Below, one piece after another: positions 10,440-33,379 of a DNA stretch of 37,068 nucleotides (its first letter is position 1; each line of letters starts with the position of its first letter). Made by a program: the position numbers and the translations under genes. Origin of the DNA: a bacterium (lineage in GTDB: Bacteria > SZUA-182 > DTGQ01); contig JBFMGO010000048.1 in NCBI GenBank assembly GCA_040752695.1, positions 1 to 37,068 on the forward strand, read 5' to 3'. The notes below the pieces were generated by a model. That model was not told where the DNA came from and ran no database searches. It saw only the letters and a program-made list of their open reading frames with translations.

Positions 10440-10662
10440 TGTTACCCCTCCTCTCGGAAGTTGATACGACAGCAATATTGATTAATGATAAGAATATTAT
10501 CCATGAGCAGTAACCATTACTCTAAAAATGACTATTCGGGAGAAATAGCCCCCATGAGAAATAACCATAATGAGCGAACAGGCTATCAGGAAAATAGCTA
10601 TTAAAGAGCGAATAATCATCCAAACCTGAAAGAAAATCCTTACCTGAAAGAAAATCCTTCTC

Positions 10663-11250
10663 TTAGTACCATCCAAACCCTGAAAGATTCAACCAATTGC
10701 CTGACCCAAAAGGATAGTAAGAAGTATAGGGCACGTACTGTGGCACTGTGTTTACCTCGGTACTTTCTGAAACGGTCGTCGTTACTTCACCTCCAGGCAC
10801 ATAAACGGTGCGGCTCTGCTCGACAGTATAATCCTTGCCGGTTACCTGACTAAAGGGGTAGCCGGAATTTCCCCAAAGTGGTGTGGAATAGGTATTCCCC
10901 AATACATATGGCTGATTAAAAGTATACATTCCCGGATATACCGAAGACAAGGCAGAGTTTAAACCAGTAGCCGGATACGCTGAGTAAGCATTTGAATAGG
11001 ATGGGTAATATGAATAGGATGGATAATATGAATAGCCCGGATAAAGGTTCAAGACTGATCCCGATCGTCCGGCCAACTGGTTATAGGCAGGATACGTAAC
11101 ATAGGTGCCATAACTGTACAATGAACTATTTCCGCAGCAACCACCGCCGCCGCCGCCATGAGCCGCAGCCACCATCGGTGTAAGGAGCATAATGATACCT
11201 ATGAATGCCATCAGGCAATTTCTATGATTTCCTATCTTTAATGTAAACAT
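10663..11250 (-). CDS. Secreted Tyr/Ser/Gly-rich hypothetical protein
   Basis: ATG at 11250 follows AAAGGGGG. Signal peptide ends AAA|H, then HGGGGGGCCG and YSYYPS repeats. Confidence 0.7.
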   Translation of the reverse strand: MFTLKIGNHRNCLMAFIGIIMLLTPMVAAAHGGGGGGCCGNSSLYSYGTYVTYPAYNQLAGRSGSVLNLYPGYSYYPSYSYYPSYSNAYSAYPATGLNSALSSVYPGMYTFNQPYVLGNTYSTPLWGNSGYPFSQVTGKDYTVEQSRTVYVPGGEVTTTVSESTEVNTVPQYVPYTSYYPFGSGNWLNLSGFGWY

Positions 11251-11320
11251 GTCTATCCCCCCTTTATGAAGACAGTAATTTACCATTCAATGCAATGAAT
11301 AAAATAGTATTGTTAATATA

Positions 11321-15908: not shown

Positions 15909-16781
15909 ATGGGAACTCAGTACGAAACGAAAATACCGGAGATCCTGCAAAAATATCAGCAGGAATTGTTCGATGACTGGATGAGGGAGCAACTGGCCGC
16001 GACCTCGTTGCGACTTGATCTGATAAGTGAGCCGGAATTGCGACAGCAGTCAGCCGAATTCCTGAATCTTTTGCAGAAAGGAGCTAAGAGCCGGAACCTG
16101 ACTGATATCATGGCTCCCGAATGGGGTGATATGCGGGATATGTTGACCCTCCTTATCCGCTTGAGAGTCGAGCAGGGGTTCACTTCGTCTGAGGCTGCAA
16201 CCTTTATTTTCTCTTTCAAGCAGTCCCTTTTCAAGAGACTGTCGATGGATATCGGCCAGGATAGCGAAGCATTCATGCGTGAAATATGGATAGCCACGGC
16301 CTTCCTGGACAAGCTGGGGCTGTATGTAACCGAGATCTTCCAGAAGAGCCGCGAGCAGATAATTGAGCGCCAGCGCAAAGAGCTCCTGGAGCTTTCCACT
16401 CCGGTGGTGAAATTGTGGGAGGGTGTCCTGGCCCTGCCGCTGATCGGAACCCTGGACAGTGAGCGCACCCAGGTAGTCATGGAAAGCCTCTTGAATATGA
16501 TTGCCGAAACCAATTCGTTCATTGCTATCATAGACATCACAGGGGTTCCGGCTGTAGACACCCTGGTTGCTCAGCACCTGCTCAAGACCGTGGCAGCAGC
16601 CCGCCTGATGGGGGCTGAATGTTTCATCAGCGGCATACGCCCGCAGATTGCCCAGACCATTGTCCACCTGGGTGTTAACATCAGTGACGTTGTTACCAAG
16701 GCCAACTTGGCCGATGCTTTTACCCTGGCCCTGAAGCAAATTGGTGTTACTCTCACCAGACCGCAGACGCCCCGTTCGTGA
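15909..16781 (+). CDS. rsbR: Stressosome sensor/scaffold RsbR (N-terminal sensor domain plus STAS)
   Basis: ELSTPVVKLWEGVLALPLIGTLDSERT, IIDITGVPAVDTLVAQHL, ISGIRPQIAQTIVHLG. Confidence 0.95.
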   Translation: MGTQYETKIPEILQKYQQELFDDWMREQLAATSLRLDLISEPELRQQSAEFLNLLQKGAKSRNLTDIMAPEWGDMRDMLTLLIRLRVEQGFTSSEAATFIFSFKQSLFKRLSMDIGQDSEAFMREIWIATAFLDKLGLYVTEIFQKSREQIIERQRKELLELSTPVVKLWEGVLALPLIGTLDSERTQVVMESLLNMIAETNSFIAIIDITGVPAVDTLVAQHLLKTVAAARLMGAECFISGIRPQIAQTIVHLGVNISDVVTKANLADAFTLALKQIGVTLTRPQTPRS

Positions 16782-16795
16782 AGGAGGGAGATTCC

Positions 16796-17215
16796 ATGGA
16801 GCACGCATACGGGGGGCGGATACCCATTCTCAAAATGGGCGAATTTCTCCTGGTGAGCATTCAGGTGGATTTGCATGATCAAATGGCCATGAGCCTCCAG
16901 GATGACCTTTTGGAGCATATCACAAGGACAGGGGCACGCGGCGTTTTACTGGACATTTCAGCTCTGGATGTCGTGGATTCTTTTATTGGCCGTATGGTAG
17001 GAAATATCGCCAGAATGTCGAAAATTCTTGGTGCGGAGACTGTCCTGGTTAGCATGAGGCCGACAGTGGCCATTACCATGGTTGAGCTTGGTGTTTCCCT
17101 GCAAGGGGTCCATACCGCCCTGAACCTTGAGAGGGGGATGGAACTTCTGCGGACCTTAATGAGAAAAGAGGAAAAAAGAGAGAGAGACATCAGAGGAGAG
17201 CGATGGAACCGATAA
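16796..17215 (+). CDS. rsbS: Stressosome STAS protein RsbS
   Basis: IPILKMG..LLVSIQVDLHD and LDVVDSFIGR (conserved phospho-Ser). ATG at 16796 follows GGAGG. Confidence 0.95.
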   Translation: MEHAYGGRIPILKMGEFLLVSIQVDLHDQMAMSLQDDLLEHITRTGARGVLLDISALDVVDSFIGRMVGNIARMSKILGAETVLVSMRPTVAITMVELGVSLQGVHTALNLERGMELLRTLMRKEEKRERDIRGERWNR

Positions 17216-17610
17216 AGAAAACCGAGACCTTGGCGGTTCGCTCCTCGCAAGATGTTATTCAGGTACGGCAGGTCGCCCGCGTCTGGGCAGTGGAGATGGG
17301 CTTCAGCCTGGTTGACCAGACCAAGATCGTCACTGCTACCAGTGAATTGGCCCGCAATATGGTTGACTTCGCCGGTGGCGGGATTGTGCGGCTTGAGGCC
17401 CTTGACCAGGGAAGCCGCCTGGGGCTCCGGCTGACCTTCGAGGACCAGGGGCCGGGTATTCCGGACATCGCCCTGGCCCTGAAAGACGGCTACAGCACCA
17501 GAGGGGGGCTTGGCCTGGGTTTGGGCGGTTCCAGGAGGTTAATGAACGAATTTGAAATCCACTCCCGTCCGGGAGAAGGTACGCGGGTGATCGTTACCAA
17601 ATGGCGGTGA
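17203..17610 (+). CDS. rsbT: Switch Ser/Thr kinase RsbT
   Basis: TKIVTATSELARN, DQGPGIPDI.LALKDGYST.GGLGLGLGG.RRLMNEF.I.S.PGEGT. Confidence 0.95.
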   Translation: MEPIKKTETLAVRSSQDVIQVRQVARVWAVEMGFSLVDQTKIVTATSELARNMVDFAGGGIVRLEALDQGSRLGLRLTFEDQGPGIPDIALALKDGYSTRGGLGLGLGGSRRLMNEFEIHSRPGEGTRVIVTKWR

Positions 17611-17719
17611 TGAGACCATTATTCTCCTCTCCGTCTTCTGGGTCGAGTGGAGGTATGCAGGTCATTTAAAGGGCGATGGCCTTCATATGGCGATGGCCTT
17701 CATATATGGAGTGACTTTC

Positions 17720-18733
17720 ATGAAAAAGCAAATAGCCTTGCCGGTAAGCGAGGCCAGTCAGGCGGCAGAGGCAAGGCGCATGGCCGTAAACATGGCCGTA
17801 AATCTCGGCTTCGACGAAGCCGGAGCTGGGAAAGTAGCGATTGTCGCTGCGGAGGCTGCGAGGAACCTGGTCAAATATGCCAGTGGTGGCGAACTGCTCC
17901 TTCGGTCCCTGGAGAGCGGCGGCATCAACGGACTTGAAATCATGGCCCTGGACAGGGGGCCGGGGATGGAGAATGTCTCACGATGCCTGGATGACGGCTA
18001 TTCCACTTCCGGCAGCCCTAGCCAGGGTCTTGGGGCCATCTCCCGCATCGCGGACATGTTTGATATTCACTCGGCAGTTGGCCGGGGTACGGCCCTGGTA
18101 GCTCATATATGGGCGAAAGCCCAGCCTGAAGGCCAGCAGAGGCCAGCCTGCAATGCCGAGTACGGCGCAGTCTGCCTGCCCAGGCCCGGCGAGACGATAA
18201 GCGGCGATGGATGGGCTGATGCCTGCGGGCCGGGCTGGACCCTTGTCCTTTTGGCCGATGGCCTGGGGCATGGCCCGCTGGCAGCCGAAGCCTCCATGGC
18301 GGCAATAAAAATATTCAGAGAGAATACCCGGCTTGACCCTGCCCGAATAGTTGAACGCATTCATGCCGCACTCCGGAGCACGCGGGGTGCAGCCCTGGCT
18401 GTGGCCAGGGTGGATCTTGCCCGCCGCCAGGTCATCTATTGCGGAATAGGGAATGTCAGCGGCATTATCGTCTCCCGTGAGGGAAGTACCGGCATGGCTT
18501 CTTTCAACGGCACTGCCGGCGGAGAGGTCAGTAAAATAATAGAGGTTAATTACCCATGGCCGGAAGATGCCATTCTGGTCATGCACTCTGACGGATTGTC
18601 CAGCCATTGGAAGCTCAACCGCTATCCGGGCCTGAAAAGAAAACATCCCGCTCTGATCGCCGGTGTTCTCTACCGGGATTATTCGAGGGAAAATGACGAT
18701 GTAACCGTGCTGGTAGTTAAAGGTGTACGCTAA
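17720..18733 (+). CDS. RsbT-like HATPase fused to a SpoIIE/PP2C phosphatase (RsbX-like)
   Basis: N-terminal EAARNLVKYA...DRGPGM...DGYST. C-terminal SGD, ADGLGHG, HSDGL and DDVTVLV PP2C motifs. ATG at 17720 follows GGAG. Confidence 0.9.
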   Translation: MKKQIALPVSEASQAAEARRMAVNMAVNLGFDEAGAGKVAIVAAEAARNLVKYASGGELLLRSLESGGINGLEIMALDRGPGMENVSRCLDDGYSTSGSPSQGLGAISRIADMFDIHSAVGRGTALVAHIWAKAQPEGQQRPACNAEYGAVCLPRPGETISGDGWADACGPGWTLVLLADGLGHGPLAAEASMAAIKIFRENTRLDPARIVERIHAALRSTRGAALAVARVDLARRQVIYCGIGNVSGIIVSREGSTGMASFNGTAGGEVSKIIEVNYPWPEDAILVMHSDGLSSHWKLNRYPGLKRKHPALIAGVLYRDYSRENDDVTVLVVKGVR

Positions 18734-18828: not shown

Positions 18829-21000
18829 ATGAGTATAACCATTTTCAGTATGCAGATCAGCTCCGAATATGATGTCGTCCTGGCGCGGCAGCGGGCCAGG
18901 CAGATTGCGGCAGCTCTTGGGTTCAGGGAACTGGAGCAGACCCATATCTCCACGGCAGCCTCGGAAATCACCCGAAATGCCCTCATGTATGCGGGCGGAG
19001 GCACTATCGAATACATGGTTGAAGGTGAGGCTCCCCAGGTGTTTCTCATACGCATTCGCGATCAAGGGCCGGGGATCGATAACCTGCAGGCCATTCTGGA
19101 AGGCCAGTACATAAAAGAGAAAAACAAAGGGATGGGCATTATTGGGATGGGTATCGTCAGCGCCAGGCGGCTGGTGGATTATTTCCACATAGAGTCAACT
19201 CCGGGCAGGGGAACGACCGTGCTGCTGGGAAATACCTTCCCGCCGGGTGCACCGCCCGTCACCAGGGATAACCTGACCAGAATTGCCATTATCCTGGCAG
19301 AGCATACACCTCAGGATTCTTTTACATTCACGATCAGGCAGCAGCACAGGGAGCTAATGGCTACTCTGGGGGAGTTGTCCCAGCGTCAGGAAGAGCTGGC
19401 CAGGGTTAACCGGGAGCTTGAAGATACCAATCGCGGAGTTATGGCCCTGTATGCCGAACTGGAGGAAAAGGCCGGGCATCTGGCCAAAGCCGATAAACTC
19501 AAATCCCGGTTTCTATCGGATATGAGCCATGAATTTCGCACTCCGATCAACTCGATACTGGCCCTGTCCCAGATTCTGCTGAACCGGATCGATGGAGATT
19601 TGACCGAAGAGCAGGAGAAACAGGTGAACTTCATCCACCAGGCAGCCCAGGACCTTTCGACCCTGATCAATGACCTTCTGGATCTATCCAGGATCGAAGC
19701 CGGAAAGGTGACGCTTCATCTGAACAGGTTCGAGGTGGCCAATCTTTTCAGCGCGATCAGAGGAATTATGAGGCCTTTGCTCACCAACGAAAATGTGGAT
19801 CTGATCTTTGAGGACGCTTCGGCTATCTCCCCACTCTACACCGACGAGGGCAAGGTTTCCCAGATCTTGAGAAACCTTATCTCCAATGCGCTCAAGTTCA
19901 CCGAGCGGGGTGAGGTCCGCGTATCGGCAGCCTGTGACTTTGCCAACAGAAAGATAATCTTTTCCGTGGAGGATACCGGGATCGGGATTGCACCCGAGGA
20001 CCAGGAACGAATCTTTCAGGAATTTACCCAATTGGAGAGTCCTTCCCAGAAGAGGAGCAGGGGGACGGGCCTTGGGCTTCCTCTGTCCCGTAAGCTGGCT
20101 GCGCTGCTCGGGGGCAGCATCAGCCTGAAAAGCCAGCCAGGGGTCGGATCGACCTTCTCCGTCATCATCCCGGTCGTTCACGACGAGCGGGCTCCGGTGC
20201 TGTCAATACGGGAAGGATGCGGTCAAAAGGTCGACCAGACCCGCTTTCCCGTACTGGTGGTCGAGGATGATCCCGAAACCATTTATACCTATGAAAGATA
20301 CTTTACCGGGTCGGATTTTCAGATTATTCCGGCCAGGAACTTAAAAGAAGCCCATGCAGCGCTGAAACAGGTCCGGCCAATGGCCATTATTCTTGATATC
20401 CTGCTGCCAGGTGAAAATGGCTGGGCTTTTCTGGCCGAACTGAAGGAAAGCGAAGCCACCTGGGATATTCCTGTTCTTGTGGTCAGTATTGTCAATAAAC
20501 CGGAAAAGGGAAAGCTCCTTGGGGCCGATGATTACTTCGTCAAGCCGGTCAGCCGGCAACGTCTTTTGAATAAACTCAAGGAAATGGAGAAACAGTTGCC
20601 TTTGGAAAAAGTTCTGATTATCGATGACGAGGAGATCTCCCGCTACCTGCTGAAAGGGTTACTGGCAGATACACGCTGCACCATCATCGAGGCGGAAAAC
20701 GGGCCGGAAGGTATTCACCTGGCGGCCAGGGAAAAGCCGCAGGCCATATTTCTCGATCTGGTCATGCCCGGAATGAACGGTTTCGAAGTCCTCGACCGGC
20801 TGAAGGCCGATCCTGAAACGCGTGACATCCCGGTTATCGTCATCACTGCCAAGCATCTGGAAGAGGAAGAGCGCAGCCATCTCGAGGCAGAGGCTCTATC
20901 CATTATTTCCAAGGGAACCACACCGCGCGATGCGGCCATGGCCCAGATCAAGGATGCCCTGGCGAAAGCCCTCCGGCTGAGGGGAACAGGCAAGGAGTAA
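18829..21000 (+). CDS. Hybrid histidine kinase: RsbT-like HATPase, coiled coil, HisKA, HATPase, two receiver domains
   Basis: SEITRNALMYAGGG/DQGPGI; MSHEFRTP; NLISNALKFT, DTGIGI, GTGLGL; two REC domains (LDILLP, LDLVMP). Confidence 0.93.
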   Translation: MSITIFSMQISSEYDVVLARQRARQIAAALGFRELEQTHISTAASEITRNALMYAGGGTIEYMVEGEAPQVFLIRIRDQGPGIDNLQAILEGQYIKEKNKGMGIIGMGIVSARRLVDYFHIESTPGRGTTVLLGNTFPPGAPPVTRDNLTRIAIILAEHTPQDSFTFTIRQQHRELMATLGELSQRQEELARVNRELEDTNRGVMALYAELEEKAGHLAKADKLKSRFLSDMSHEFRTPINSILALSQILLNRIDGDLTEEQEKQVNFIHQAAQDLSTLINDLLDLSRIEAGKVTLHLNRFEVANLFSAIRGIMRPLLTNENVDLIFEDASAISPLYTDEGKVSQILRNLISNALKFTERGEVRVSAACDFANRKIIFSVEDTGIGIAPEDQERIFQEFTQLESPSQKRSRGTGLGLPLSRKLAALLGGSISLKSQPGVGSTFSVIIPVVHDERAPVLSIREGCGQKVDQTRFPVLVVEDDPETIYTYERYFTGSDFQIIPARNLKEAHAALKQVRPMAIILDILLPGENGWAFLAELKESEATWDIPVLVVSIVNKPEKGKLLGADDYFVKPVSRQRLLNKLKEMEKQLPLEKVLIIDDEEISRYLLKGLLADTRCTIIEAENGPEGIHLAAREKPQAIFLDLVMPGMNGFEVLDRLKADPETRDIPVIVITAKHLEEEERSHLEAEALSIISKGTTPRDAAMAQIKDALAKALRLRGTGKE

Positions 21001-21016
21001 TGAATGATACTGCCTT

Positions 21017-24000
21017 GTGAGGAGAATGTATTTGATGTACCGTATGATTTTACAACAAAAAAAATTCATTGGTTTACCTATGGACCAGGACCAATGTGCA
21101 GATAAAACTGACAAGACTGATAAAACAGATAGAACTGATAAAACGGACAAAACCGATAAGTCCGGTAGCGCGCATGCCAGGGCTGGTAAGTCCGGCAGCA
21201 CCCAGGTTAAGGCCGACAAAGACGGTGACGGTGCCGCTGAAGGGTCTGCAAAAATCACTATTCTGAATGTGGATGACAATGAGGCAGGCCGCTACGCAAC
21301 CAGCCGGCTATTGAAAAAAGCGGGATTTGCGGTCAAAGAGGCTGCGACCGGTCAGCAGGCCCTGCTCATGGCCGCTGTCGAGCAGCCCGATTTGATCATC
21401 CTCGACGTTCACCTGCCGGATATGAACGGCTTCGAAGTCTGCCGTCGCATCAAGTCCGACCCCGCGACAGCCCTCATCCCTGTCCTGCATTTGTCGGCAA
21501 CCTACCTGGACAGCCAGTCCAGGGTAGAGGGCCTCGAGAGCGGCGCGGATAGTTATCTGACACAGCCGGTGGAGCCGATGGTACTGATTGCCACCATCAA
21601 GGCCCTTTTGCGGATGCGTGCAGCGGAGTCTCAGGTGACGGTTGCAGCCCGGCAGTGGCAGGTTACTTTTGACACCATCAGCGACGGCGTTTGCCTGCTG
21701 GATCAGGAAGGGAAAATCATACAGTGCAACCGCTTCATGTTGAATCTTCTCGGACAGCCAGAGTCTGAAATTGTTGGCCGAAGGTGCAGTGAACTCATTG
21801 AGTGCCCCTGCCTCGATCCTGAAGGAGCCTGCTTTAAGCGCCTGCGAGAGAGCGGCCAGCGGGAGTCTTTCGATTGGCAGACTGGAAGCCGGTGGTTTCG
21901 TATAAGCCTGGACCCGGTCCGGGACGAAGCGGGCCGTCTGGCCGGTGCTGTCCAGATCATGACCGACATCACCGCGCAAAAACAGGCACAAGAAGATCGC
22001 GAGCGGCTCAACGAGTTGCTGGAGGCCGAGCGGGCACGCTTCGAGGAGGTGCTTAGACAGATGCCAGCCGGTGTTATTATCGCCGAGGCGCCCTCAGGCC
22101 GGCTCGTACTGGCTAACGAGCAGGTGGAAAAAATCTTCCGGCATCCTGGCTTGATGTCTTCTGATGTCGAGCATTACAGCGAATGGAAAGGGTTTCATCC
22201 CGACGCCAAACCCTATCAGCCCCATGAGTGGCCGCTGGCGCGATCTGTCCGCGAGGGTGAGGTTATCATCAGTGAGGAAATCGATATCCTTCGCGGTGAC
22301 GGCACCCATGGCACCATAAGCGTCAGTGCTGCACCGATCAGGGACGTCGAAGGACACATTATGGCGGGAGTGGCGACTTTCTCCGATGTTACCGAAGCCA
22401 GGCAGGTGCAGAAGGAATTGCGGCTCTACAGACATCACCTCGAAGAGCTGGTGAAGGAGCGCACGATCGAGCTTACCGCTGCCAATGCGCAGCTTCGCCG
22501 TGAGGTTACTGAGCGCAGGCAGGCAGAAGCCAGACTGCGGGAGTCGGAATCGAAGTACTCGACCGTGGTCGAGCAGGCCAGGGACTGGGTGTTCATTATA
22601 CAGGATGGGATTTTTAAATTCTCGAATCAGGCCGTCTACGAAATAAGCGGGTATCTGGTGGAAGAGATCATGGATAAATCCTTTTTGAATCTTGTATCAC
22701 CTGAATTCAGGGATCTTGTCGGTCAAAGATATGCCCAGCGCATGAGCGGTGAAAACCCTCCCTCTTCCTATGAGGTAAAAGTGCAGCACAAAGACGGAGC
22801 GACCAGGGATGTGGAAGTATCCGCCAGGGTTATCCAGTACCAGGGAAAACCTGCCGACATGTGTATTGTGCGCGATATCACGGGGCGCAAAAGACTGGAG
22901 GAGGAAATGCAAAAAGCACAGCGGCTTGAATCGATTGGAGTTCTGGCTGGCGGAATCGCCCATGACTTTAATAATATCCTGACCTCTATTATCGGCAATC
23001 TTTCTCTGGCCACCATGCTTGCCAAACCTGGAGACAGGATTTCCAAGCTGCTGGACGGGACGGAAAAGTCAGCCTGCCGGGCCAGGGATCTGACCCGGCA
23101 GTTACTTACTTTTGCCAAAGGCGGAGCGCCGATCAAACAAACCGCTTCAATTTCGGAACTTCTCAAAGATACGACAACCTTCTCTCTGAGAGGGTCAAAA
23201 GTGAAGGCCGAATTCTCTCTGGCCGAAGATCTCTGGCCGGTTGAAGTCGATACCGGACAGATAAGCCAGGTTGTTAATAACCTGGTCATCAATGCCAAAC
23301 AGGCCATGCCAGAAGGGGGAATAATCAGGGTGACTGCCCAAAATGCAACCATCGGACACGAAGAGAACAAGGTCGATATCCCTCTGGAAGAAGGCAGGTA
23401 TATAAAAATATCGGTGGAAGACCAGGGTGCCGGTATACCGGATGAACATCTCCAGCGAATATTCGACCCTTATTTCACCACCAAGGAAACTGGAACAGGG
23501 TTAGGTCTGGCCACCAGTTATTCAATTATCAAACGGCATGAGGGATATATTACCGTAAAATCACAGCCAGGGGTTGGAACAACATTCTTTATCTACCTCC
23601 CTGCCTCGAAAGAAAAAGGCAAGACTGCATCAACGGTTCAGGAAGAGGAAGCGGGATTACTGAGCGGCCAGGGGAGAATCCTGGTCATGGACGATGAACA
23701 AATCGTCAGAGACGTTGCCAGGCGGATGCTCGAGTTTATCGGTTATGAGGTCGAACTGGCAAGAGATGGTGCTGAAGCTATCGCCTTATACGAAAAGGCT
23801 CGAAAATCCGGTCACCCCTTTGATGCGATCATCATGGATATAACGGTGCCAGGGGGAATGGGAGGCGAAGCGGCCATACGGAAACTGCGTGAAGTTGATC
23901 CCAAGGTCAAAGCCATCGTGTCAAGCGGCTATTCCAGCGATGCCCTTATGGCTGATATAAAACGGTCCGGCTTCAGAGGCATTATCGCCAAACCATACAA

Positions 24001-24049
24001 AGTCACAGAACTAGCCAGGGTATTACAGCGGGTAATAAAGGGCAAGTGA
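21017..24049 (+). CDS. Hybrid histidine kinase: REC, three PAS, HisKA, HATPase, REC; start uncertain (21017, 21035 or 21080)
   Basis: ILNVDDN...LDVHLP; three PAS/PAC ends (TDIT, SDVT, RDIT); GIAHDFNN; NLVINA, DPYFTTK, GTGLGL; ILVMDDE...MDITVP. N-terminal DKT repeats. Confidence 0.93.
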   Translation: MRRMYLMYRMILQQKKFIGLPMDQDQCADKTDKTDKTDRTDKTDKTDKSGSAHARAGKSGSTQVKADKDGDGAAEGSAKITILNVDDNEAGRYATSRLLKKAGFAVKEAATGQQALLMAAVEQPDLIILDVHLPDMNGFEVCRRIKSDPATALIPVLHLSATYLDSQSRVEGLESGADSYLTQPVEPMVLIATIKALLRMRAAESQVTVAARQWQVTFDTISDGVCLLDQEGKIIQCNRFMLNLLGQPESEIVGRRCSELIECPCLDPEGACFKRLRESGQRESFDWQTGSRWFRISLDPVRDEAGRLAGAVQIMTDITAQKQAQEDRERLNELLEAERARFEEVLRQMPAGVIIAEAPSGRLVLANEQVEKIFRHPGLMSSDVEHYSEWKGFHPDAKPYQPHEWPLARSVREGEVIISEEIDILRGDGTHGTISVSAAPIRDVEGHIMAGVATFSDVTEARQVQKELRLYRHHLEELVKERTIELTAANAQLRREVTERRQAEARLRESESKYSTVVEQARDWVFIIQDGIFKFSNQAVYEISGYLVEEIMDKSFLNLVSPEFRDLVGQRYAQRMSGENPPSSYEVKVQHKDGATRDVEVSARVIQYQGKPADMCIVRDITGRKRLEEEMQKAQRLESIGVLAGGIAHDFNNILTSIIGNLSLATMLAKPGDRISKLLDGTEKSACRARDLTRQLLTFAKGGAPIKQTASISELLKDTTTFSLRGSKVKAEFSLAEDLWPVEVDTGQISQVVNNLVINAKQAMPEGGIIRVTAQNATIGHEENKVDIPLEEGRYIKISVEDQGAGIPDEHLQRIFDPYFTTKETGTGLGLATSYSIIKRHEGYITVKSQPGVGTTFFIYLPASKEKGKTASTVQEEEAGLLSGQGRILVMDDEQIVRDVARRMLEFIGYEVELARDGAEAIALYEKARKSGHPFDAIIMDITVPGGMGGEAAIRKLREVDPKVKAIVSSGYSSDALMADIKRSGFRGIIAKPYKVTELARVLQRVIKGK

Positions 24050-24273: not shown

Positions 24274-27200
24274 TCAATACACGGTCAGTACTACCGGCTC
24301 GGCCTCATCCTTGATATCCGGGTTATAGTAATCGTAGGCCGTGGATTTTGGTGTCGATACCTTAAGCGGGTATTTGGCCTTAAGGCGATAGGGAATCGAC
24401 ACCGGTTTGTCATAAGAAACCGGGTTCAGATACAAGGTGAGCTGGCGATTGGTCGATTCGTACTTGACGATTTTCCCTTTCTCGATGGCCTGATCGAAAT
24501 CCTCGTAAAGGACACTGAATCCCGGTGGTATTCCGAGGTCCACCATACCCATGCGGGTGACCGTATTGGATTGGTTGTTCCTGACCGTTACCGTACAGAG
24601 GATGGTATCGTCAACAGTCAGGCTCTTTTTGTCGTAGTCAAGGTCTATAGACAGAGGCGGGACCGATGGCGTCAATTCCACCTTTTTCCAGGGCAGATAA
24701 TAGGTGCCGGTAATCTGGTAGATGAGACTTCCCTCTCCGCTCAGACTGAGGCTAACCGTATTATCACCTTCCACCGTATAGGGAGCAAGATTGATGATTC
24801 TCACGATCCGGCTGTCAACCGGTTTTACCTTCAGGATAGGCAGATCATCTTTATCGAGGGTCTGGCCGTTGATCGTGATACTGATTTCCCCATTCATCGC
24901 TCCTTTCTGGCCGCTCATGGCCATAATCATCACTCTGAGGGAGAGGACCGTAGCCTCCACCTGACCCCAGAGGCCGAAGGCGTCCTTCTTTTGGAAGAGA
25001 TAATTCAAGACCTTGTCAATGGTATTGGGATAACGCCACTGGGCCTTGATCAGGGCATAGGCAATCATGGCCGTAGTCTCAAGGTCCAGATAGTCTCCCT
25101 TCGAGTAGGTCAGACTTTCCTTCTCCGCCGAAGTCCAATGGACCGTATCTCCTTCCTCGATCTTTCTTTCCTCGATCTGGTCAAGGATAGCGAGCCCATC
25201 AACGTCCCTGGGATCGCCTTCGAGCAAAGCGTTGGCGCAAAGGGCCAGGGTATAGGTATCGGTTGTGCTCTTTATCTGCCCTCTGATATAGTTCTGGCCC
25301 GACTTGATGGTCATGCTGTTCGCTGCATAGCCTGAATGGATCATGGCCCAGGTAGCATAGGCTGTGGCCTGAAGGGTATTGTTCAGTGCATTGAAAAGGT
25401 CCCGGTCATCCGGAGGCCAGGAGCCATCCGATTTTTGCTTTCCAGCCAGCCATTGCTGGGTTCTGCTGATCAGGGCAGGATCGACAAAATGGACCCGCGC
25501 CATATCGCTGAATTCCATCAGGCCGTAAGCGGTCAGAATGGGTTTAGCCGGTCCCTTGCCGTACCAATCGAAGCCCCCGCCCTGACACTCAAAGGTCAGG
25601 AGCCTTTGATAACCAAGGTTGATATACTGCTGTGCCTTCATCTCGATTTCCGGAGTCAACTGATTTGTGCTCTTCATGTAGTCGAGTACTAAAACATTCG
25701 GCCACGTCACCGACGTGGTTTGGCAAAATCACCCATAGGGGACATGGAAGAGATTGTCCAGACCCTCCACAACCTGACTGAACAGGCAAGGGTAGACCCT
25801 GACCAGGATCCTGCTGGCATCGTCAATGGCCTCAAGGGGAATAGCGATCACCTGAGTAGCCTCCTTTTCTTGCAGGCGCTCGCTGACATTGACCTGAGAT
25901 TCCAGCCCATTGGGCAAAACTTCGATCCTGCGGGACAGGGCATCACTCATCCTGGTTCCATAACCGAATACGGTCAGTTCATGCCAGCCCGGTTTTTGCG
26001 CCTTGATCCGGAAATGAACAGCCGTAACCTGCCCCGGCTCGATGCGAAGCACTTTTTCCTGCTCATCTTTCAGTTCAAACCAGGGCAGGGAATCTCTCTG
26101 ACCTGACACCTGGCCCGGCTGGCTCGCCTGATCCGATTGGCTTACCTGGTCGAGTTCATCCACCAGCCCCACCACCTCCTGGTCCGCCAAATCCGCCTGA
26201 TCCGGCTGATCCATCTCCAGCTTTACCCGCACGGTCTGGGCTTCTCCAAGGTAATTGTATACTGCCACGGGCAGGGAGATCTCGTCATCCTGAGTAAGGG
26301 TTGCAGGAAGATCAAGGTCGATAAAGAAGTCCTGGAAGACAACGATTCCGTCTGTTCTCCCGCCCAGTTTACCGTCAAGGGCCGATGCCGTTGTGCTCAT
26401 GCGCCAGGTGGTGATGGAGTCTGCCATATTGGCATCGAGATATGCCCTCCCGTTCTGATCGGTAATCAGAGCAGGCTGCCAGAGGAGGGTTTCGGGGAAA
26501 TCCCGCCTGATCTTTCGCGGCTCCTGGACATTTTCCGCTGCTTGATCCTCATGAGAGCTCTGCCCTCCTTCTCCTCCCCCTGCGACCGGGGACAGATAGC
26601 CGGGCTGGGTTTCCGGCTCTCCGGAACCACTCGCCTGGCCGCTGCTATAGCCACTACCGCCAGCGCTATAAGCATAACCAGCGTAACCGCCGCCACCTCC
26701 AGCACTGTAACCGGCACTATAACCACCGCCGCCACCACCACCGCCAGCACTGTAACCGGCACTATAACCACCGCCGCCACCGCTGTAACCGACACTGTAA
26801 CCGCCGCCACCACCATAGGCAGTATAACCTCCGCCACCCCCGCCGGCAAGGCCGCCATAAATGCCACCACCGCCAATGCCAAGATAACCACCAAGATACC
26901 CGCCAAGATACCCGCCAAGATAGCCGCCATACAGGCCATACACACCGACACCATACGGGCTCCCCCCCGGACCACTGCCGGTATACGGAGCGGTCTTGGG
27001 TGCGGCCGGGTAGTATTGTTTGGTCAGTTGCAAGTCATCGGCCGTGTTCTTCACCTCGTCAGGGCCCCAACTGGTCAGGATTAGCTGGTAGTTACCCACT
27101 TGCAGGGCATAGGGATTGCCCCAAGGATCAAGATACCGCTTGATCATATCCTGATCAAGGGCGTTATCATAGGCATAAGTATAATAAATATTCAGCTTGC

Positions 27201-30200
27201 CCAGGTCCTTGGCTATTTTATCTGCATCAGTATCAATGGGGGAAATCAGGGTTTCCCTCATGCGCTGGATAAGTTCGGGGAAGCTACTTTCGTTCAGTCC
27301 CGGATCAGGGGGCTCTTCCAGATCGGCAAAAACCACCTCTGCCGCTTCCTGAATGTCGGGGACGGGTTCTTCACTGGTGACCGCATCTTCAAAGGGAACC
27401 AGAAGCGGCCAAAAGCGCGGCTTCATGATCTCCTCTTCCATGCTGAAGAAGACCTTGAGTAGACCGGGCTGATTCTCCTGGAGCGCATAAACCGCCTCAT
27501 CCACGATGGTGATCCCTAAGGCTGCGGGCTGGGCAGGAGTGACCTGGAAATCGATCCGGGCCCGCTCACCCGGCAGATACTGATCCTTATCCAGAGTGGC
27601 TGAAATCCGGATCTCATCGGGCTGATTGACATAAACGATTTTTTTATCCCTGAACACATCCGAAGCCGTATCCCTGGCACCCGAGATGTAATATGCCTCA
27701 ACCATAAGGGTCCCTGCCATGTCGCTGTCCAGGTCAACCAAAAGACTCCCTCGGCCGTTGAGGATATCGACCCCAGTGGTCAGTACGGTCTTTTGGTCCC
27801 TGATCAAATCCACAAAAGCCCTTCTCGCTTCAATTTCCGGAGTGTAAAGGTCAATGGTCATAGTCTGGCCAACGGTATAAATGGCCTTATCGGTGCGAAG
27901 GAGAATGCGGGCATCCCTGCCTCCGGTGACTGCTATGTCCGCCTCAGTTGTCTTGCCACCTGCGCTGGAGGAAACATGGAGAATCAGGGGTTCGTTCGGA
28001 TCGGAATCTGGATCTGGGGTCAGGGTAAACTGCCCAAGTCCCTGCTCATCCGTACTTACCTGCTGATGGATACGGGAGCCCAGGCAAACCACTGTATTCG
28101 AGGTGGCCAGTCCCTGCCCCTTGGGATCGGTAGTCATGATGTAAATAATATTTTCCACTCCCGCTACTATCTGCCTGCTTTCAGGAATGAGGCGAATGTT
28201 GATCGGAGTTTTGGTAACAGTCAATTCCCTGGTCATCTTCTCTTCATGGCCCGCAGAATCTCTGACCATGATATCCAGCCTGACCAGGGCGTCTCCCTGC
28301 TCCAGAGGATGGCCGACAAAATAGCTGGGGAGGCTCAGATCAAAGGTAAAGAATCCTTCATCGTCGGTCAATCCTCCTATGGCCTGGAAAAGATTGAAGT
28401 TAACATCATACTTGTAGGCATCAACCGTAACCTTGGCCTGAGTAACCGGCTTTCCGAAAAGATACTTGGCCTGGATCGTCCCCTGGACCTGGTCGCCGGG
28501 CTGGTAGTATTCTGCGTTGGTCTTGAGTTCGACCTTGAATTTGGGCAGCACGTAGCGCTCGACAGTCACCTTCTTCTCCGATGTGGTTGACTGGCTGCCT
28601 TCGCCCATTACTGCCCTGACCGTATACAGGCCCATATTGATATCCGTACCAAGGACAAAGTCACAACAGGCCAGGCCGAAGCTGCTGGTCTTTGGGTCAA
28701 CCCTGAATACCTTGTTCCCTTTGGAGTCCTCAACCTCGATGATCATGGTTTGATCGGCGGCAGGCTCAAGATCGGGTTTTTCGAGGGTGAGAGTACGGAT
28801 ATGAATCGTCTGTCCGGGCTGATAGAGTGGCTTGTCAGTAGTCAGGAGAACCTTGTGCAGGCGCACAACCTCGATATTTCGCTCAAATTCCTCAGTCCCG
28901 AACGAGGATGTCACCCTGAACCTGATCTTGGCAGTATCTCCGGCACTTTCAGGGATAGTCAAAAGTGCCTTGGCCAACCCTTCATCATCGGTAATTCCCT
29001 TGTAGAGGCGGTTTGGATTATTTTCCCTGATCAGGTCAACCGTAACCTGCGCATCTTCAATGGGAGAGGAATCCCCCTGCACGAAGGCATGAACACTCAT
29101 ATATGTGGGTTCTCCGGCAAAGAAGGAATCCGTGCCATTGACCCTGACCTCCATCTTGTCCGCCAGGTAGAACAGGCTCTTCTTACCGCTCAACCCGAGC
29201 CCGCCTCCACTGAACTGATACTCAAGAATATACCTGCCAAAATCCTCGGGTTTCGTCCCTGCAGGAACTCCGTTCAGTTTCAAAAGATAGCTCTTTTCCC
29301 CAGGCTCAAGGGTCAGTTCTTCCCTCTGTCGGCTGATTTCATTCTTGTCCAGGTCGAGCAGGGTGAGAGTGATCTGCCCCAAGACCGGTTTTGACGAACT
29401 GTTTTTCAATGGCAGCCTGATGGAAACCTTGGAACCAACTGCTGCCGGAGATTGGGTAAGGTTTTGGAGCCATGCCCCGGAACCTGCTCCCGCCCAAGAC
29501 CACAAAGACCCTGTTCCTGAAGTCCAGGAAGTGACAGGAATCAGCGAACTGGCAGTCCACCCTCCCGACTGGCCGGGAAAAGAAAGAGAAGGGGAAGAGA
29601 AGAGGGAGGATGATGTCGGGTATGGCGTATACGTGGTCACCAGTGATCCAAGCAGGCCGCTGGAGCCGAATCCAACCGTGGATGATGAGAGCACGGGAGA
29701 GAGTACAGGGGAGAGTGCGGAAGAAGTCCATAATAAACTCGAACCATAAAGATCGGCTTCCGTCGCTAGCCGGTTGCGCACCTTCGGCTGAATGTAATCA
29801 CAATCAACGCGATCAAGAAATTGTGGCCCGAAAGGGCCAAGCAGGTAAAGACACCCGTTTTCCACACTGATGTCATCGGGCCCGGAAGGCAGGTCAACGG
29901 ACCACAACAAGAGAGGATCATACGGCAGAGTCAGGTCTATGGCAGCAAGACCCCAGGTGGTTCTTTCCCTGTCTTCATAGGCAACATAGGCCCTTTGCCC
30001 TCCCGCAGCCGCTGCACTCTCTATTCCCTCACACATACCGGCTACGATATATTTGCTGCCTGCGAGGGGGTAGACAGCAATCAGGGTCGGGAAAGCGTCC
30101 AGATTCTCCGGCGAATTTTCCAAACTGAAAATGCGAAGTCCTGAGGCTTCATCGGCTTGCAAGAGGAGATTTTGACAGATCCTTGCAGATTCATATCCTT

Positions 30201-30390
30201 GCGCTGCAGATTCATATCCTTGCGCTTCTGCCTCAAAAGTGCAGGGGATAAGGCTTTTGGCCCGTATCCCAGGTTCATAAAAGACCGAGGAGGCGGTGGT
30301 CAGGCTTAAAACCGCCATGATCCATCCCAACTCTTTCACCATTCGCCATAATACATGCCGACCGGCTTTTGGTCGAATAATTTCCTTCAT
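24274..30390 (-). CDS. Alpha-2-macroglobulin family protein, 2038 aa, with in-frame UGA (probable Sec1554) at the thioester Cys position
   Basis: ORFs 25729..30390 and 24274..25710 are in frame; the junction reads VPYG-TGA-FCQTTSVTWPN. MG motifs: TDKPLYQPGQT, ERYVLPKF, RRDFPETLLW, ADSITTW, FQDFFIDLDLP. TED: GYQRLLTF...LTAYGL. C-terminal MVDLGIPPGF, YDYYNP. ATG follows AAGGAG. Family assignment is firm; Sec is inferred. Confidence 0.9.
25702..25718 (-). promoter_or_regulatory. Putative bacterial SECIS hairpin of the A2M gene
   Basis: mRNA CCACGUC-GGU-GACGUGG, a perfect 7-bp stem at +11..+27 after the UGA, with a G-led, GU-containing loop. Confidence 0.72.
26620..26985 (-). repeat. Gly/Tyr/Ser-rich repeat region of the A2M (bait-region position)
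   Basis: GGYL x3 (12-bp unit) and GGGGGYSAGYSA x2, just upstream of RRDFPET. Confidence 0.85.
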
Positions 30391-30523: not shown

Positions 30524-30574
30524 TAAAAAATGAGATTAGGTGAGGGCAGGCTTGGAGCATGTCCTCACCTAATC
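30524..30574 (-). terminator. Terminator overlapping the stop of the beta-helix gene
   Basis: 12-bp inverted repeat gattaggtgagg (30534-30545)/cctcacctaatc (30563-30574), followed on the minus strand by tcattttttaa. Confidence 0.6.
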
Positions 30575-33379
30575 CAGTAAGGGCAAAAGAAAAACAAGCA
30601 GGATCTCACCGCCATCAGGAATCGTAAGGTTTGAACCGCTCTGACTGCATGGCTGTCCGAACAACTGATAGCTGGCTTCCCATCGGCCTGCGATTTGATC
30701 GTATTTCTGAATGGATAAGCCGTTATCCTCCGGCCAGATAAGCTGCCTGAGGGCTGAGATGGCAGTTTTATTCTTCAGGTCGATTTGGCCTCCTTCAGAT
30801 GTGTTATCCGATAGAGTGCTGTTGATGACCTTTGGCCAAGACTCTTCATCGCCATACACCCCGCCGCCATCTCCCCAGGGGGCGCTGTTGCTGCTGATAA
30901 GGCAGTAGCTGATACCCGGACTGGAGGCATGGCCATAGATTCCACCACCTCCCTCAGCAGCGGCATTTTGGCAGATCGCGCCATAGAGGATTCTTGGCTG
31001 TGAAGAGAAGCAATACATCCCGCCTCCGCACCAGGCTGCCCTGTTTCCGCTGATCGTGCAGGCAATCATCAGCGGTGAGGATTTTTCGGTGTATACTCCG
31101 CCGCCATCGCTGCCGAAGGCGATGTTATTGCTGACAATACAGCAGGTCATCACCGGTGAGGAGAAAAAGCAGTATACCCCGCCACCAGCCCAGGCTGCCC
31201 TGTTGCTGCTGATGGTGCAGCTCGTGATAGCCAAAGGAGAATTGTAACCTGCGTAAACTCCGCCCCCATCATCCTCTGCCTGGTTGCCACTGATGAGACA
31301 ATGGGTAATCTTTGCCGGGGAAAAATCGGCATACATTCCGCCCCCGCATTCGCCAGAAGTGTTGTTGCTGATAGTACAATAATCAAGCGTTGGCGAGGAG
31401 GCATTGAAACAGCCGATCCCACCGCCGTTTTCGCCGGAGGTGTTGTTGCTGATTATGCAGTGAACAAACGATGGCGAAGAGGCATTGAAGCAGCCGATCC
31501 CACCGCAACAGCAGGCAGCCTTGTTGCCGCTGATAATGCAATGGGTAATCGTGGGCGAGGATTGATTACAAAAAATCCCGGCACCGTCATCAGCCGATCC
31601 GTTCCGGATAGTGAATCCATCCAGCACCGAATCCCGGCCCTCGGAATGGTCAAATTTCACTACGATCCCCAGGGCATTTCCATCGATAATAGCTGCATCC
31701 GCACCATTCTCCGAGCAAAGGGTGATGGCCTTATCCGTAAGATAAATGTTTTCGGTATAGATTCCATCATGGACCAGGATTATTTCTCCGTAATGTGCCT
31801 GGTCAATCGCCTCTTGAATGGAGGTATGAGTATACCCTGATTTTCCTACCTCCCTGGTCACCTGAGGTGATTTGACTCTTATAACATTATGGAGGCTCAA
31901 CCGGCTGGTTCCGCATTCCGTGGTGATGGTCAGGCTCACATCGTAAATGCCGCAATGGGAATAGGTGTGGAATACTGTCACACCGCTACCGGTCGTGCCA
32001 TCCCCAAAATCCCACAAAAAACCGGCCCCTCGAAACCGGCTGCCGCCGGAAGGGGATGCATCGAAAGCAATGGTCAGGGGAAAAAACCCTGCCGTCTGAT
32101 CGGTTGTGAAAATGGCCCTCGGCACGCAGGAGGTAAGATCGCTGCACTCATAGGCCCCAATGTCAATCCCCGCTCCCTGCGGTCGGGCGATTCCTTCCTG
32201 GTCCTGTGAGGGCGCATCAGTGACTGTCCCCTGGTCGATGCAAGGCGATCCGGGCATGAGGTAATAGGTACCCATCTTATAGGTTCCCTGTTCATAGGCC
32301 TGTTGCACAGGCTGTACAAACAATGGGTCGGTATTAATATTGCCCGTTCCCGGATATGTGCCTGAATCTTGCTGAACATCAGAGCAGGTGACGGTTGCAG
32401 ACCCATTTTCGATGACCATGACTTCATGGGGACCAAAGTTGTCCGTATCACCCCAGAGGATGCAATTGATGACCTTGACTGAAGCGTCAGAGCAGTAAAG
32501 CCCGCTGCCATTATAGTCGGCTGTATTACCACTTATGGTACAATTGATTAAGACAGTGGCAGATCCATGGCCGATCCATAAGCCGCTGGCATTGTAACCG
32601 GCTGTATTATCAATGATAAGGCAATTGGTTATCACCGAGGATAGATACTCTCCATATATTCCACCGCCGCCTCCGTCAGCACTGTTATTGCTGATAATGC
32701 AGGAAGTAATTGCAGCGGAGGAATTAAGGGCAAAGATTCCTCCTCCTCCCCAGGCACTATTATTGCTGATAATGCAGGAAGTAATTACAGGTGAGGAACC
32801 ATAGATAGAGATTCCGCCACCTCTGCTCTGGGCCTTGTTACCACGGATAATACAATGGACAATCGTTGGGGAGGAGTAGTAGCACAAAATTCCGCCACCA
32901 GACAGGGTATGCCCATAGCCATACGAAGCATATCCATTCTGAATAGTAAACCCATCCAGTACCGCATCTGCGCCCTCGCCCTGATTAAACGTCACCACGC
33001 TCTCTCTGTAAGATCCGCTATCGGAAGTCCCATCGATGTCGGATGATCCACCATCGGAATATCCATCAATAATGGTAAGATCGGCTCCCATGGCTGACCG
33101 GACAGTGATGTTCCTGCCCTTGAAGCTAATCCGCTCCCTGTAAATGCCCGGATAGACCAGCACCTCATCCTGCCCGCTCACTGCCTGGTCAATCGCTGCC
33201 TGGATAGAAGTGTAAGCGTACCCTAATGTGCCGACTTCCAGCTTTGCGGCCAGAGCCGAACAGATAGACAAAGCAGGACGGCCAGGCAAAGTCAAAAAGC
33301 CCCATGTGGCCGAAAAGATTACTATTCCTATCATAAAATTTATTATGTACCTGATTTTCAACATAATATAATTATACAA
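30569..33379 (-). CDS. Secreted right-handed parallel beta-helix repeat protein with choice-of-anchor-Q-like segment and PKD domain; start uncertain (TTG 33379 or ATG 33364)
   Basis: Two SIQ.AID...G.Y.E.I modules; many C.IS.N.A..GGG(I/V) repeats; GNINTDPLF...GSPCIDQG...DIGAYE; PKD WDFGDGTTGSG..V.HTY...G.YDVSLT. Confidence 0.85.
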   Translation of the reverse strand: MYNYIMLKIRYIINFMIGIVIFSATWGFLTLPGRPALSICSALAAKLEVGTLGYAYTSIQAAIDQAVSGQDEVLVYPGIYRERISFKGRNITVRSAMGADLTIIDGYSDGGSSDIDGTSDSGSYRESVVTFNQGEGADAVLDGFTIQNGYASYGYGHTLSGGGILCYYSSPTIVHCIIRGNKAQSRGGGISIYGSSPVITSCIISNNSAWGGGGIFALNSSAAITSCIISNNSADGGGGGIYGEYLSSVITNCLIIDNTAGYNASGLWIGHGSATVLINCTISGNTADYNGSGLYCSDASVKVINCILWGDTDNFGPHEVMVIENGSATVTCSDVQQDSGTYPGTGNINTDPLFVQPVQQAYEQGTYKMGTYYLMPGSPCIDQGTVTDAPSQDQEGIARPQGAGIDIGAYECSDLTSCVPRAIFTTDQTAGFFPLTIAFDASPSGGSRFRGAGFLWDFGDGTTGSGVTVFHTYSHCGIYDVSLTITTECGTSRLSLHNVIRVKSPQVTREVGKSGYTHTSIQEAIDQAHYGEIILVHDGIYTENIYLTDKAITLCSENGADAAIIDGNALGIVVKFDHSEGRDSVLDGFTIRNGSADDGAGIFCNQSSPTITHCIISGNKAACCCGGIGCFNASSPSFVHCIISNNTSGENGGGIGCFNASSPTLDYCTISNNTSGECGGGMYADFSPAKITHCLISGNQAEDDGGGVYAGYNSPLAITSCTISSNRAAWAGGGVYCFFSSPVMTCCIVSNNIAFGSDGGGVYTEKSSPLMIACTISGNRAAWCGGGMYCFSSQPRILYGAICQNAAAEGGGGIYGHASSPGISYCLISSNSAPWGDGGGVYGDEESWPKVINSTLSDNTSEGGQIDLKNKTAISALRQLIWPEDNGLSIQKYDQIAGRWEASYQLFGQPCSQSGSNLTIPDGGEILLVFLLPLLD

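Follow-up and report, generated by a model that had tools for sequence, protein, structure and literature searches.

A single in-frame UGA at the thioester position of an A2M/TEP-family gene

The subject of this work is a gene of the alpha-2-macroglobulin (A2M) and thioester-containing protein (TEP) family located on the minus strand, at positions 24274-30390, of a bacterial DNA stretch of 37,068 nucleotides (contig JBFMGO010000048.1), which as a whole is referred to as the window. An earlier note on this DNA had proposed that the gene contains a UGA codon for selenocysteine (Sec, U) in place of the thioester cysteine, that a hairpin directs the insertion of Sec, and that the host is competent for it. 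This core proposal was supported by every computational check that the note had suggested. As the note had anticipated, public gene callers give exactly two pieces, namely two in-frame open reading frames (ORFs) on the minus strand at 25729-30390 (1553 amino acids, with the TGA as stop codon) and at 24274-25710 (478 amino acids). Translation with TGA as U joins them to a full read-through gene of 2038 residues, which ends with an ordinary TGA stop (24274-24276) and in which codon 1554 (TGA 25729-25731, the predicted Sec1554) is the sole internal stop. At the junction the sequence is ccc tat ggg TGA ttt tgc caa acc acg tcg gtg acg tgg (P-Y-G-*-F-C-Q-T-T-S-V-T-W), in agreement with the earlier description, and the corresponding peptide of the read-through product is ...VPYG-U-FCQTTSVTWPNVLVLDYMK. 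TGA is also the commonest ordinary stop codon in the window, ending 11 of the 19 ORFs including the A2M gene itself, and is thus no general sense codon here.

The read-through product shows the multi-domain composition of the A2M/TEP family. Its Pfam matches comprise MG2 (PF01835, E = 2e-20), MG3 (PF17791) and the bait-region domain A2M_BRD (PF07703, 4e-15) at 27481-28851, the A2M domain (5e-20), the thioester domain (TED, PF07678, 2e-38), which covers residues 1538-1819 (24934-25779) and spans the TGA, and the MG8-like receptor-binding domain A2M_recep (PF07677, 1e-9) at 24307-24558. None of the NCBIfam models matches the protein. Among solved structures in the PDB (phmmer), the best relatives are human A2M (7VON/6TAV, E = 7e-39), CD109, A2ML1, TEP1 and C3. 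In the alignment U1554 lies on the cysteine and Q1557 on the glutamine of the human A2M motif PYGCGEQ; the codon at the position of the reactive cysteine is TGA, and if this UGA is read as Sec, the nucleophile would be a selenol instead of a thiol. The window protein retains the acyl-partner glutamine, and its variant thioester motif U-F-C-Q (25720-25731) carries Cys1556 at the place of the glutamate of the CxEQ motif, a point absent from the earlier note. A second, distant A2M homologue with the canonical GCGEQN motif is encoded on another contig (C130) of the same genome.

Eleven nucleotides after the TGA begins the perfect hairpin CCACGUC-GGU-GACGUGG described in the note (25702-25718, loop 25709-25711), which is formed by the codons for T-T-S-V-T-W. 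According to the passages of PMC1088965 that describe the element, the bacterial selenocysteine insertion sequence (SECIS) is a small hairpin with a G in the apical loop just downstream of the UGA. The hairpin found here has this shape, with a 7-bp stem, 11 nt after the UGA, and a loop of GGU or, in the variant described below, GUC.

Recurrence of the TGA in other genomes

Fifteen loci, in 11 genomes and on one metagenome contig, have a TGA at the thioester-cysteine column; they are distributed over two phyla and show the motifs UFCQ, UFEQ, ULEQ and UMEQ. A cysteine codon (TGY) occupies the same column in 49 distinct homologous loci. This is the pattern that the earlier note had named as a check, TGA conserved at the column and cysteine in homologues, and since the TGA recurs in 14 further loci, it is no singleton. 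The window's own phylum, which comprises 20 species genomes, holds five of the TGA loci in four genomes, the window locus included. The other four (two in genome G007, one each in G009 and G010) all read U-F-C-Q and have the identical hairpin at a protein identity of 63-66%.

Furthermore, 185,579 species genomes were scanned at the DNA level with a pattern consisting of a Gly codon, TGA, six unspecified bases, the codons for Gln and the first Thr, nine further unspecified bases and the codons for Thr-Trp-Pro-Asn. It occurred in eight places: the four known relatives, one metagenome-assembled genome (MAG) of the Myxococcales and three chance matches. The Myxococcales locus reads EPYG-U-FEQTTSVTWPN and has the same hairpin in a protein that is only 35% identical. 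The same pattern gave five places in metagenomes, one of them true (APYG-U-FEQTTSVTWPN, again with the same hairpin) and four due to chance; a scan of viral contigs revealed no relative. In a class-level sample of 301 Myxococcota genomes, a homologue was present in 44 genomes and the TGA in two, the Myxococcales MAG and G474, whose locus reads LPGG-U-MEQTSSISYPN. A sample of 401 genomes of the phylum Myxococcota contained a homologue in 71 genomes and eight TGA loci in six; the seven loci besides that of G474, in five genomes, all read LPGG-U-[F/L]EQTTSSAWPN. The TGA form was not found in the 17 homologue-bearing genomes among 381 diverse genomes of the same domain, nor in a 35-genome phylum reached through genome G182, in which 20 genomes have cysteine forms.

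The codon itself was also seen outside the assembly, in a contig of 297 nt from another public run (a hot springs metagenome). This single low-depth DNA contig is about 91% identical to the window, from which it differs at 27 positions; none of the 24 differences that were listed individually falls within 25679-25741, the span of TGA and hairpin.

Among cysteine forms close to the window protein, a copy in a genome of the same genus (G002:C31, L027/L040) reads SYG-C-F-G-Q. Its match to the query of 739 residues is confined to residues 187-317 and 693-739, and judging from its sequence it resembles a cysteine form that has suffered deletion or degradation. A full-length CFGQ protein (P0124) that is 72% identical is present in public data.

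Translation through the TGA and constraint on the hairpin

The three codons between TGA and hairpin vary synonymously among the TGA loci (TTT/TTC/CTC, TGC/TGT or GAA/GAG, CAA/CAG) with their residues kept. Thus, these codons are translated and the ribosome reads through the TGA. Relaxed selection downstream of the TGA had been named as a finding that would speak against recoding. Instead, the downstream part is under purifying selection: within the phylum dN is 0.20-0.30, dS is saturated and dN/dS amounts to 0.08-0.15, which is equal to or below the upstream value.

The hairpin is identical in seven TGA loci, and a pair-preserving variant is present in seven more. In this second type, CCACGUC-GUC-GGCGUGG, the loop changes from GGU to GUC and one pair from U-A to U-G, and the encoded residues from S-V-T to S-S-A. 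All 98 stem cells are paired; six of the pairs are invariant, and in the seventh only one side changes. Constraint on the nucleotides was assessed at fourfold-degenerate columns with an invariant residue. In the seven loci with the first hairpin, six of 75 such columns keep a single base, namely the five codons of the hairpin and the GGG that precedes the TGA, as compared to 0 of the remaining 69. In the seven LPGG loci, 12 of 108 columns do so, including all five hairpin codons. When all 14 aligned TGA loci are taken together, 37 columns are left, and the three that keep one base are exactly the hairpin codons +4, +5 and +6. The TGA locus of G474 (L089, G474:C82, U-M-E-Q) has a different stem-loop of about 20 bp, with about -18 kcal/mol over 60 nt, as a single example. 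A search of the window genome, by a crude motif, for other hairpins shaped like that of the A2M gene yielded no useful result.

Selenocysteine machinery and a second tRNA-SeC/selB pair in the host

The genome from which the window derives (96.6% complete) contains the genes selA (536 bits), selB (383 bits) and selD (377 bits, with one in-frame TGA) as well as a canonical tRNA-Sec (69.9 bits, G73, CCA encoded). All four components of the machinery for which the earlier note had suggested a search are therefore present, and the host is able to decode UGA as Sec. The hairpin downstream of the UGA in selD, GGGUC-CGGGU-GACCU, has UC...GGU-GAC in common with the A2M hairpin.

Another contig of the same genome, C9, encodes a second tRNA-SeC with the anticodon UCA (C9:25518-25609, 58.9 bits). 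Its acceptor stem is 8 bp long with G1:C72, the discriminator base is U73, and CCA is not encoded. Directly downstream of this tRNA follows a second selB gene (C9:23145-25454, 769 amino acids), whose product matches the GTPase and C-terminal parts of TIGR00475. The selC*/selB* system is characterised by these same gene features, namely a tRNA with a long acceptor stem, U73 and the anticodon UCA and, downstream of it, a paralogue of selB. In the sections of PMC5389517 (Mukai et al.) devoted to selC*, U73 and UCA define the selC* class of tRNA-Cys, a tRNA of this type inserted cysteine at UGA in E. coli, and the natural role of selC* is called unknown by the authors. No cysS gene or paralogue was found in the 16 kb around the tRNA/selB locus on C9. 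As a further observation, the locus is part of a selenium island (C9:17000-26200, L108) that also encodes an OS_HP2 family (seleno)protein, YedF, a double-cubane reductase with its activase and a cysteine desulfurase/SclA-like gene.

The selC*-like tRNA also occurs in the same-genus genomes G001 and G002, and it was not found in G007, G009 and G010, which have the same TGA and hairpin. The caveat of the earlier note that a SelC*-type tRNA could decode the UGA as cysteine applies to the window genome. Because they are without a detected selC* tRNA, the sequence comparison makes Sec the likely ancestral reading of this UGA; in the window organism itself, cysteine may be inserted at the UGA, alone or alternating with Sec. 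Among five further TGA carriers (G007, G009, G010, G401 and G474), selB was above the cut-off in all five, selA in four, missing only from G009 (87% complete), and tRNA-Sec in two. G007, which is 98% complete and has two TGA copies, contains one tRNA-Sec, one selB and one selA and no selC* match. In the Myxococcota sample, selA is present in 247 of 401 genomes and in six of the six with the TGA form; this co-occurrence is consistent with Sec but weakly discriminating.

Split gene calls in protein databases

The wider distribution was followed in protein databases with the C-terminal ORF and with the 264 residues at the end of the N-terminal ORF as queries; the following counts refer to the best 120 of 1082 and the best 120 of 1738 matches, respectively. 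With the C-terminal query, 54 matches (the window's own included) begin at [MVL]T[YWF]PN, that is at the codon that is GTG in the hairpin, seven codons after the column, whereas 38 contain GC..Q and 28 begin further downstream. Many of these C-terminal fragments lie on long contigs of up to 233 kb. With the N-terminal query, 41 matches terminate precisely at ...P-x-G, with the G immediately before the column, and 79 have GC..Q (75 CFEQ, two CFTQ, one CFGQ and one CMEQ). The source names of the matches include Chloroflexi/Chloroflexota, Anaerolineae and Gemmataceae, and the ESM Atlas offers, as a lead, a cluster of 645 members with fragments of about 472 amino acids covering TED and receptor-binding domain, with Chloroflexota as the commonest phylum.

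In a FastTree phylogeny of 245 C-terminal parts, at least seven changes between Sec and Cys are required. One clade of 62 rows (support 100) consists of 50 [MVL]T[YWF]PN fragments, 10 later-starting fragments and two cysteine forms, and in the clade of 17 rows that holds the window protein, the motif glutamate is lost throughout. As the tree has long branches and local support values, it was used only for the statement that the TGA forms do not form one clade. At the level of protein records, these data suggest a much wider family that is called as split genes, with a large clade of C-terminal fragments of about 473 amino acids, mostly from Chloroflexota, that begin shortly behind the column.

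Proposed mechanism and alternative explanations

The codon is translated, conserved and coupled to a conserved RNA hairpin, in genomes that are competent for Sec. We regard it as nearly certain that UGA 1554 is a recoded sense codon, and Sec is very probably the usual residue at this column across the family. The best explanation overall, which we hold to be probable, is a full-length A2M/TEP protein in which UGA is recoded as Sec by means of the hairpin and which contains a Sec-Gln warhead. In the chemistry of the A2M family, the cysteine attacks the amide of the glutamine, a buried internal ester is formed, and cleavage of the bait region exposes this ester to the protease. Here, SelB and Sec-tRNA(UCA) would recode UGA 1554 co-translationally, directed by the 7-bp hairpin with its G-containing triloop that begins 11 nt downstream, and the product would be one full-length secreted or anchored protein of the A2M/TEP type. 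After folding, the selenolate would attack the side-chain amide of Q1557 to give an internal Sec-Gln selenoester buried in the TED, which upon bait-region cleavage would be exposed to amines or hydroxyls of the protease, so that the protease would be covalently trapped. The selenoester would be a faster acyl donor than the thioester, which is how selenoesters are treated in those parts of the peptide-ligation literature that deal with them. The glutamine is kept in 15 of 15 TGA loci and x-E-Q in 10 of them, which argues that the ester chemistry is retained; for the actual formation of the selenoester we see the chances evenly balanced. In all five TGA loci of the window phylum cysteine is found at +2, where the other 10 keep the glutamate. 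This replacement in the window clade suggests a selenenylsulfide between Sec and Cys, either as a protected state or for an alternative function, and Cys1556 may thus pair with Sec before the ester is formed or after its discharge.

The same residue is the basis of the main functional rival, in which Sec is inserted and no acyl ester is made, and a redox-active Sec1554-Cys1556 selenenylsulfide would turn the protein of this clade into a macroglobulin that senses redox state or is switched by it, instead of trapping proteases covalently. Such a function would fit the cysteine at +2 throughout the TGA loci of the window phylum, where the nearest cysteine-form relatives have threonine or glycine, as well as the loss of the motif glutamate in the whole 17-row clade and the almost exclusive use of Sec for redox chemistry in the bacterial selenoproteins known to us. 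It has a small but real probability, as 10 of the 15 DNA-verified TGA loci (UFEQ, ULEQ, UMEQ) keep x-E-Q without a cysteine at +2, the glutamine, which has no known role besides that of acyl partner, is never lost among them, and the remainder of the TED as well as the receptor-binding domain show strong purifying selection. We likewise consider it unlikely that in the window organism the UGA is read mainly as cysteine, by a selC* tRNA that is charged by cysteinyl-tRNA synthetase (CysRS) and brought to the same hairpin by the adjacent SelB*, resulting in an ordinary Cys-Gln thioester, perhaps with a switch between Sec and Cys according to selenium supply. The tRNA(UCA, U73) directly upstream of a selB paralogue on C9 reproduces the selC*-selB* arrangement given in the relevant part of PMC5389517, and the same tRNA is found in two genomes of the same genus. 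However, this tRNA was not detected in G007 (98% complete), G009 and G010 in spite of the same TGA and hairpin, the canonical Sec system of the window genome is complete, the surroundings of the C9 locus lack a cysS paralogue, the natural function of selC* is given as unknown in that part of PMC5389517, and for cysteine a TGY codon would suffice, as it does in many relatives. We infer that the residue in the window genome is Sec rather than Cys.

Hardly any credence can be given to the TGA as a true stop, which would leave either a pseudogene or two separate products, an MG-domain protein of 1553 amino acids and a TED protein of 478 amino acids with GTG 25710 as its start codon. The public gene callers do annotate exactly these two pieces, and a GTG is available seven codons after the TGA, but the split would take the reactive motif from both products, and no Shine-Dalgarno-like sequence precedes this GTG. 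Furthermore, the codons between TGA and GTG are conserved as protein with synonymous changes, the TGA persists in 15 loci at saturated dS and a downstream dN/dS of 0.08-0.15, and the Pfam TED model spans the junction.

Several observations weigh against the recoding of the UGA as Sec for a selenoester warhead, and some of them concern the hairpin. The earlier note had suggested a search for covarying hairpins. The hairpin is indeed conserved at synonymous sites, but no double-sided compensatory change was found, six of the seven stem pairs being invariant, and much of the stem sequence is also dictated by the conserved residues T-T-S-x-x-W. Its folding energy is unremarkable (a 71-nt piece gave z = 0.24, with 113 of 200 shuffles at least as stable), and the energies of TGA and cysteine forms overlap. 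Folding energy was therefore dropped as support, and the significance of the hairpin is derived from its conservation. Nor is the hairpin exclusive to the TGA: a cysteine form with TGT (L078, G463:C5), the closest relative of the Myxococcales TGA form L076, contains the identical 17-nt hairpin, although synonymous sites are otherwise saturated between these two loci, with agreement at only 84 of 230 fourfold sites. From this comparison, the hairpin of L078 may be a leftover SECIS after a recent change from Sec to Cys or may have a further role. Other points concern the protein. The motif glutamate is lost in the window clade (UFCQ, and CFTQ or CFGQ in cysteine relatives), so that the classic thioester chemistry may be altered there, and the identity of the stop in the large fragment clade is deduced from protein records rather than DNA. 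Among the listed public runs that hold the sequence, none is recorded as RNA; selenium in the protein, the read-through and the ester are predictions from sequence.

Further features of the gene and its neighbourhood

Outside the core A2M domains, the protein has an N-terminal extension of about 410 residues. At the N-terminus, basic residues lead into a hydrophobic segment (GWIMAVLSLTTASSVF, 30256-30390); from its sequence, this part is a probable signal peptide or anchor. Between the bait-region and A2M domains lies a Gly/Tyr/Ser-rich low-complexity insert (about residues 1135-1290, 26521-26988), by its position a candidate bait region or linker. A similar composition is seen in a 207-aa ORF on the minus strand at 10663-11286, which has no family match and is likewise rich in Gly, Tyr and Ser (YSYYPSYSYYPSYS...).

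The second Sec-type gene that had been suspected in the window could be verified. It is an ORF of the AhpC/TSA (Redoxin) family on the minus strand (2344-2922) with an in-frame TGA at 2752-2754 in the motif GGW-U-P-R-C, and probably encodes a Prx-like selenoprotein. A possible hairpin, GCAGUU-GGGAC-AACUGC, is located about 17 nt downstream of its TGA. Two further minus-strand ORFs (6225-7112 and 7410-10475) contain the BsuPI "intracellular proteinase inhibitor" domain, which in one of them is fused to a large beta-propeller domain; with these beside the A2M gene, the window holds several protease-control genes. On the plus strand, a stressosome-like module (15909-18733) comprises RsbRD_N+STAS, STAS, an RsbT-like HATPase and HATPase_c_2+SpoIIE phosphatase proteins and is followed by two large hybrid histidine kinases at 18829-24049. 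The gene directly upstream of the A2M gene on the same strand (30569-33379, minus) codes for a beta-helix/PKD-domain protein of 936 amino acids; the two genes may be co-transcribed.

Significance

Innate immunity and the control of proteases depend to a large extent on thioester proteins such as A2M, C3/C4 and the TEPs, whose reactive Cys-Gln bond is among the best-studied protein warheads. To our knowledge, nearly all selenoproteins described so far employ Sec for redox reactions. With a conserved Sec at the acyl-carrying position, the biological uses of selenium would come to include acyl-transfer chemistry, and a natural experiment on the reactivity of thioester and selenoester would be at hand. 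In line with the statement in the earlier note that no selenoprotein of this family is described, the open full-text literature, to which the search was confined with subscription-only papers outside its scope, yielded no description of a Sec-containing A2M/TEP family. Neither macroglobulin, MG2, thioester nor A2M is mentioned in the main text of a 2026 review (PMC13188914), of the deep-Sep paper (PMC12013277) or of BSepDB (PMC13326102, with its family Table S2 outside the scope), and "macroglob" does not occur in the main text of a 2022 review (PMC9312934). If real, the Sec form of the A2M/TEP family would be a new selenoprotein family whose predicted chemistry is new for selenium biology.

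A bolder proposal, which we put forward tentatively and with some doubt, is that of a widespread selenoprotein family, of which the window gene would be the first member to be recognised, with a repeated Cys-to-Sec switch and, in place of redox catalysis, a genetically encoded Sec-Gln selenoester warhead that would trap proteases faster than the classical thioester, its codon perhaps being dual-coded according to selenium supply, as Sec by selC/SelB and as Cys by selC*/SelB*. At the DNA level such a family is observed in two phyla, and the split gene calls apparently add Chloroflexota and Planctomycetota. The A2M UGA is also a concrete candidate substrate for the unexplained selC*/selB* system. 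In practice, a conserved Sec at this position would correct many public annotations, since split calls make up 41 of the best 120 matches on the N-terminal side and at least 54 of the best 120 on the C-terminal side.

Comparison with known systems

With the eukaryotic-type A2M/TEPs (7VON/6TAV, A2ML1, CD109, TEP1, C3) the window protein shares the domain order, and the context of the reactive site, PYG-x-x-x-Q...PN, aligns residue for residue. It differs from them in having UGA for the thioester cysteine and cysteine for the glutamate of CxEQ, in its bacterial origin, and in the N-terminal extension of about 410 residues and the Gly/Tyr/Ser-rich insert of about 160 residues. Bacterial A2Ms of the ECAM/YfhM type are lipoproteins with a CLEQ thioester that are paired with PBP1C, whereas those of the YfaS/MagD type have no thioester. 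Like these, the window protein is a bacterial macroglobulin and presumably a periplasmic or secreted protease trap, and its relatives carry the JGI label "YfaS (alpha-2-macroglobulin family)". In contrast to the ECAM type, however, its N-terminus has no obvious lipobox, the 18 neighbouring ORFs of the window include no gene for a penicillin-binding protein, transpeptidase or transglycosylase, and no ECAM-type chain is among its 38 PDB matches at E <= 1e-5.

The selC*/selB* system as presented in the corresponding sections of PMC5389517 has the same tRNA features and gene order as the pair on contig C9. The window genome belongs to an unclassified small phylum and not to the Deltaproteobacteria or Firmicutes named in that paper, and has no adjacent cysS*. 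With bacterial selenoproteins such as SelD and the AhpC/Prx-like proteins, both of which are encoded in the window genome, the A2M protein shares an in-frame UGA aligned to the cysteine of homologues, repeated switches between Cys and Sec (at least seven on the tree) and, just downstream of the UGA, the small hairpin with a G in the apical loop as outlined in PMC1088965 for bacterial SECIS elements. What sets the A2M protein apart from these selenoproteins is the predicted place of the Sec, which would be the acyl-carrying residue of an internal (thio)ester instead of a redox centre.

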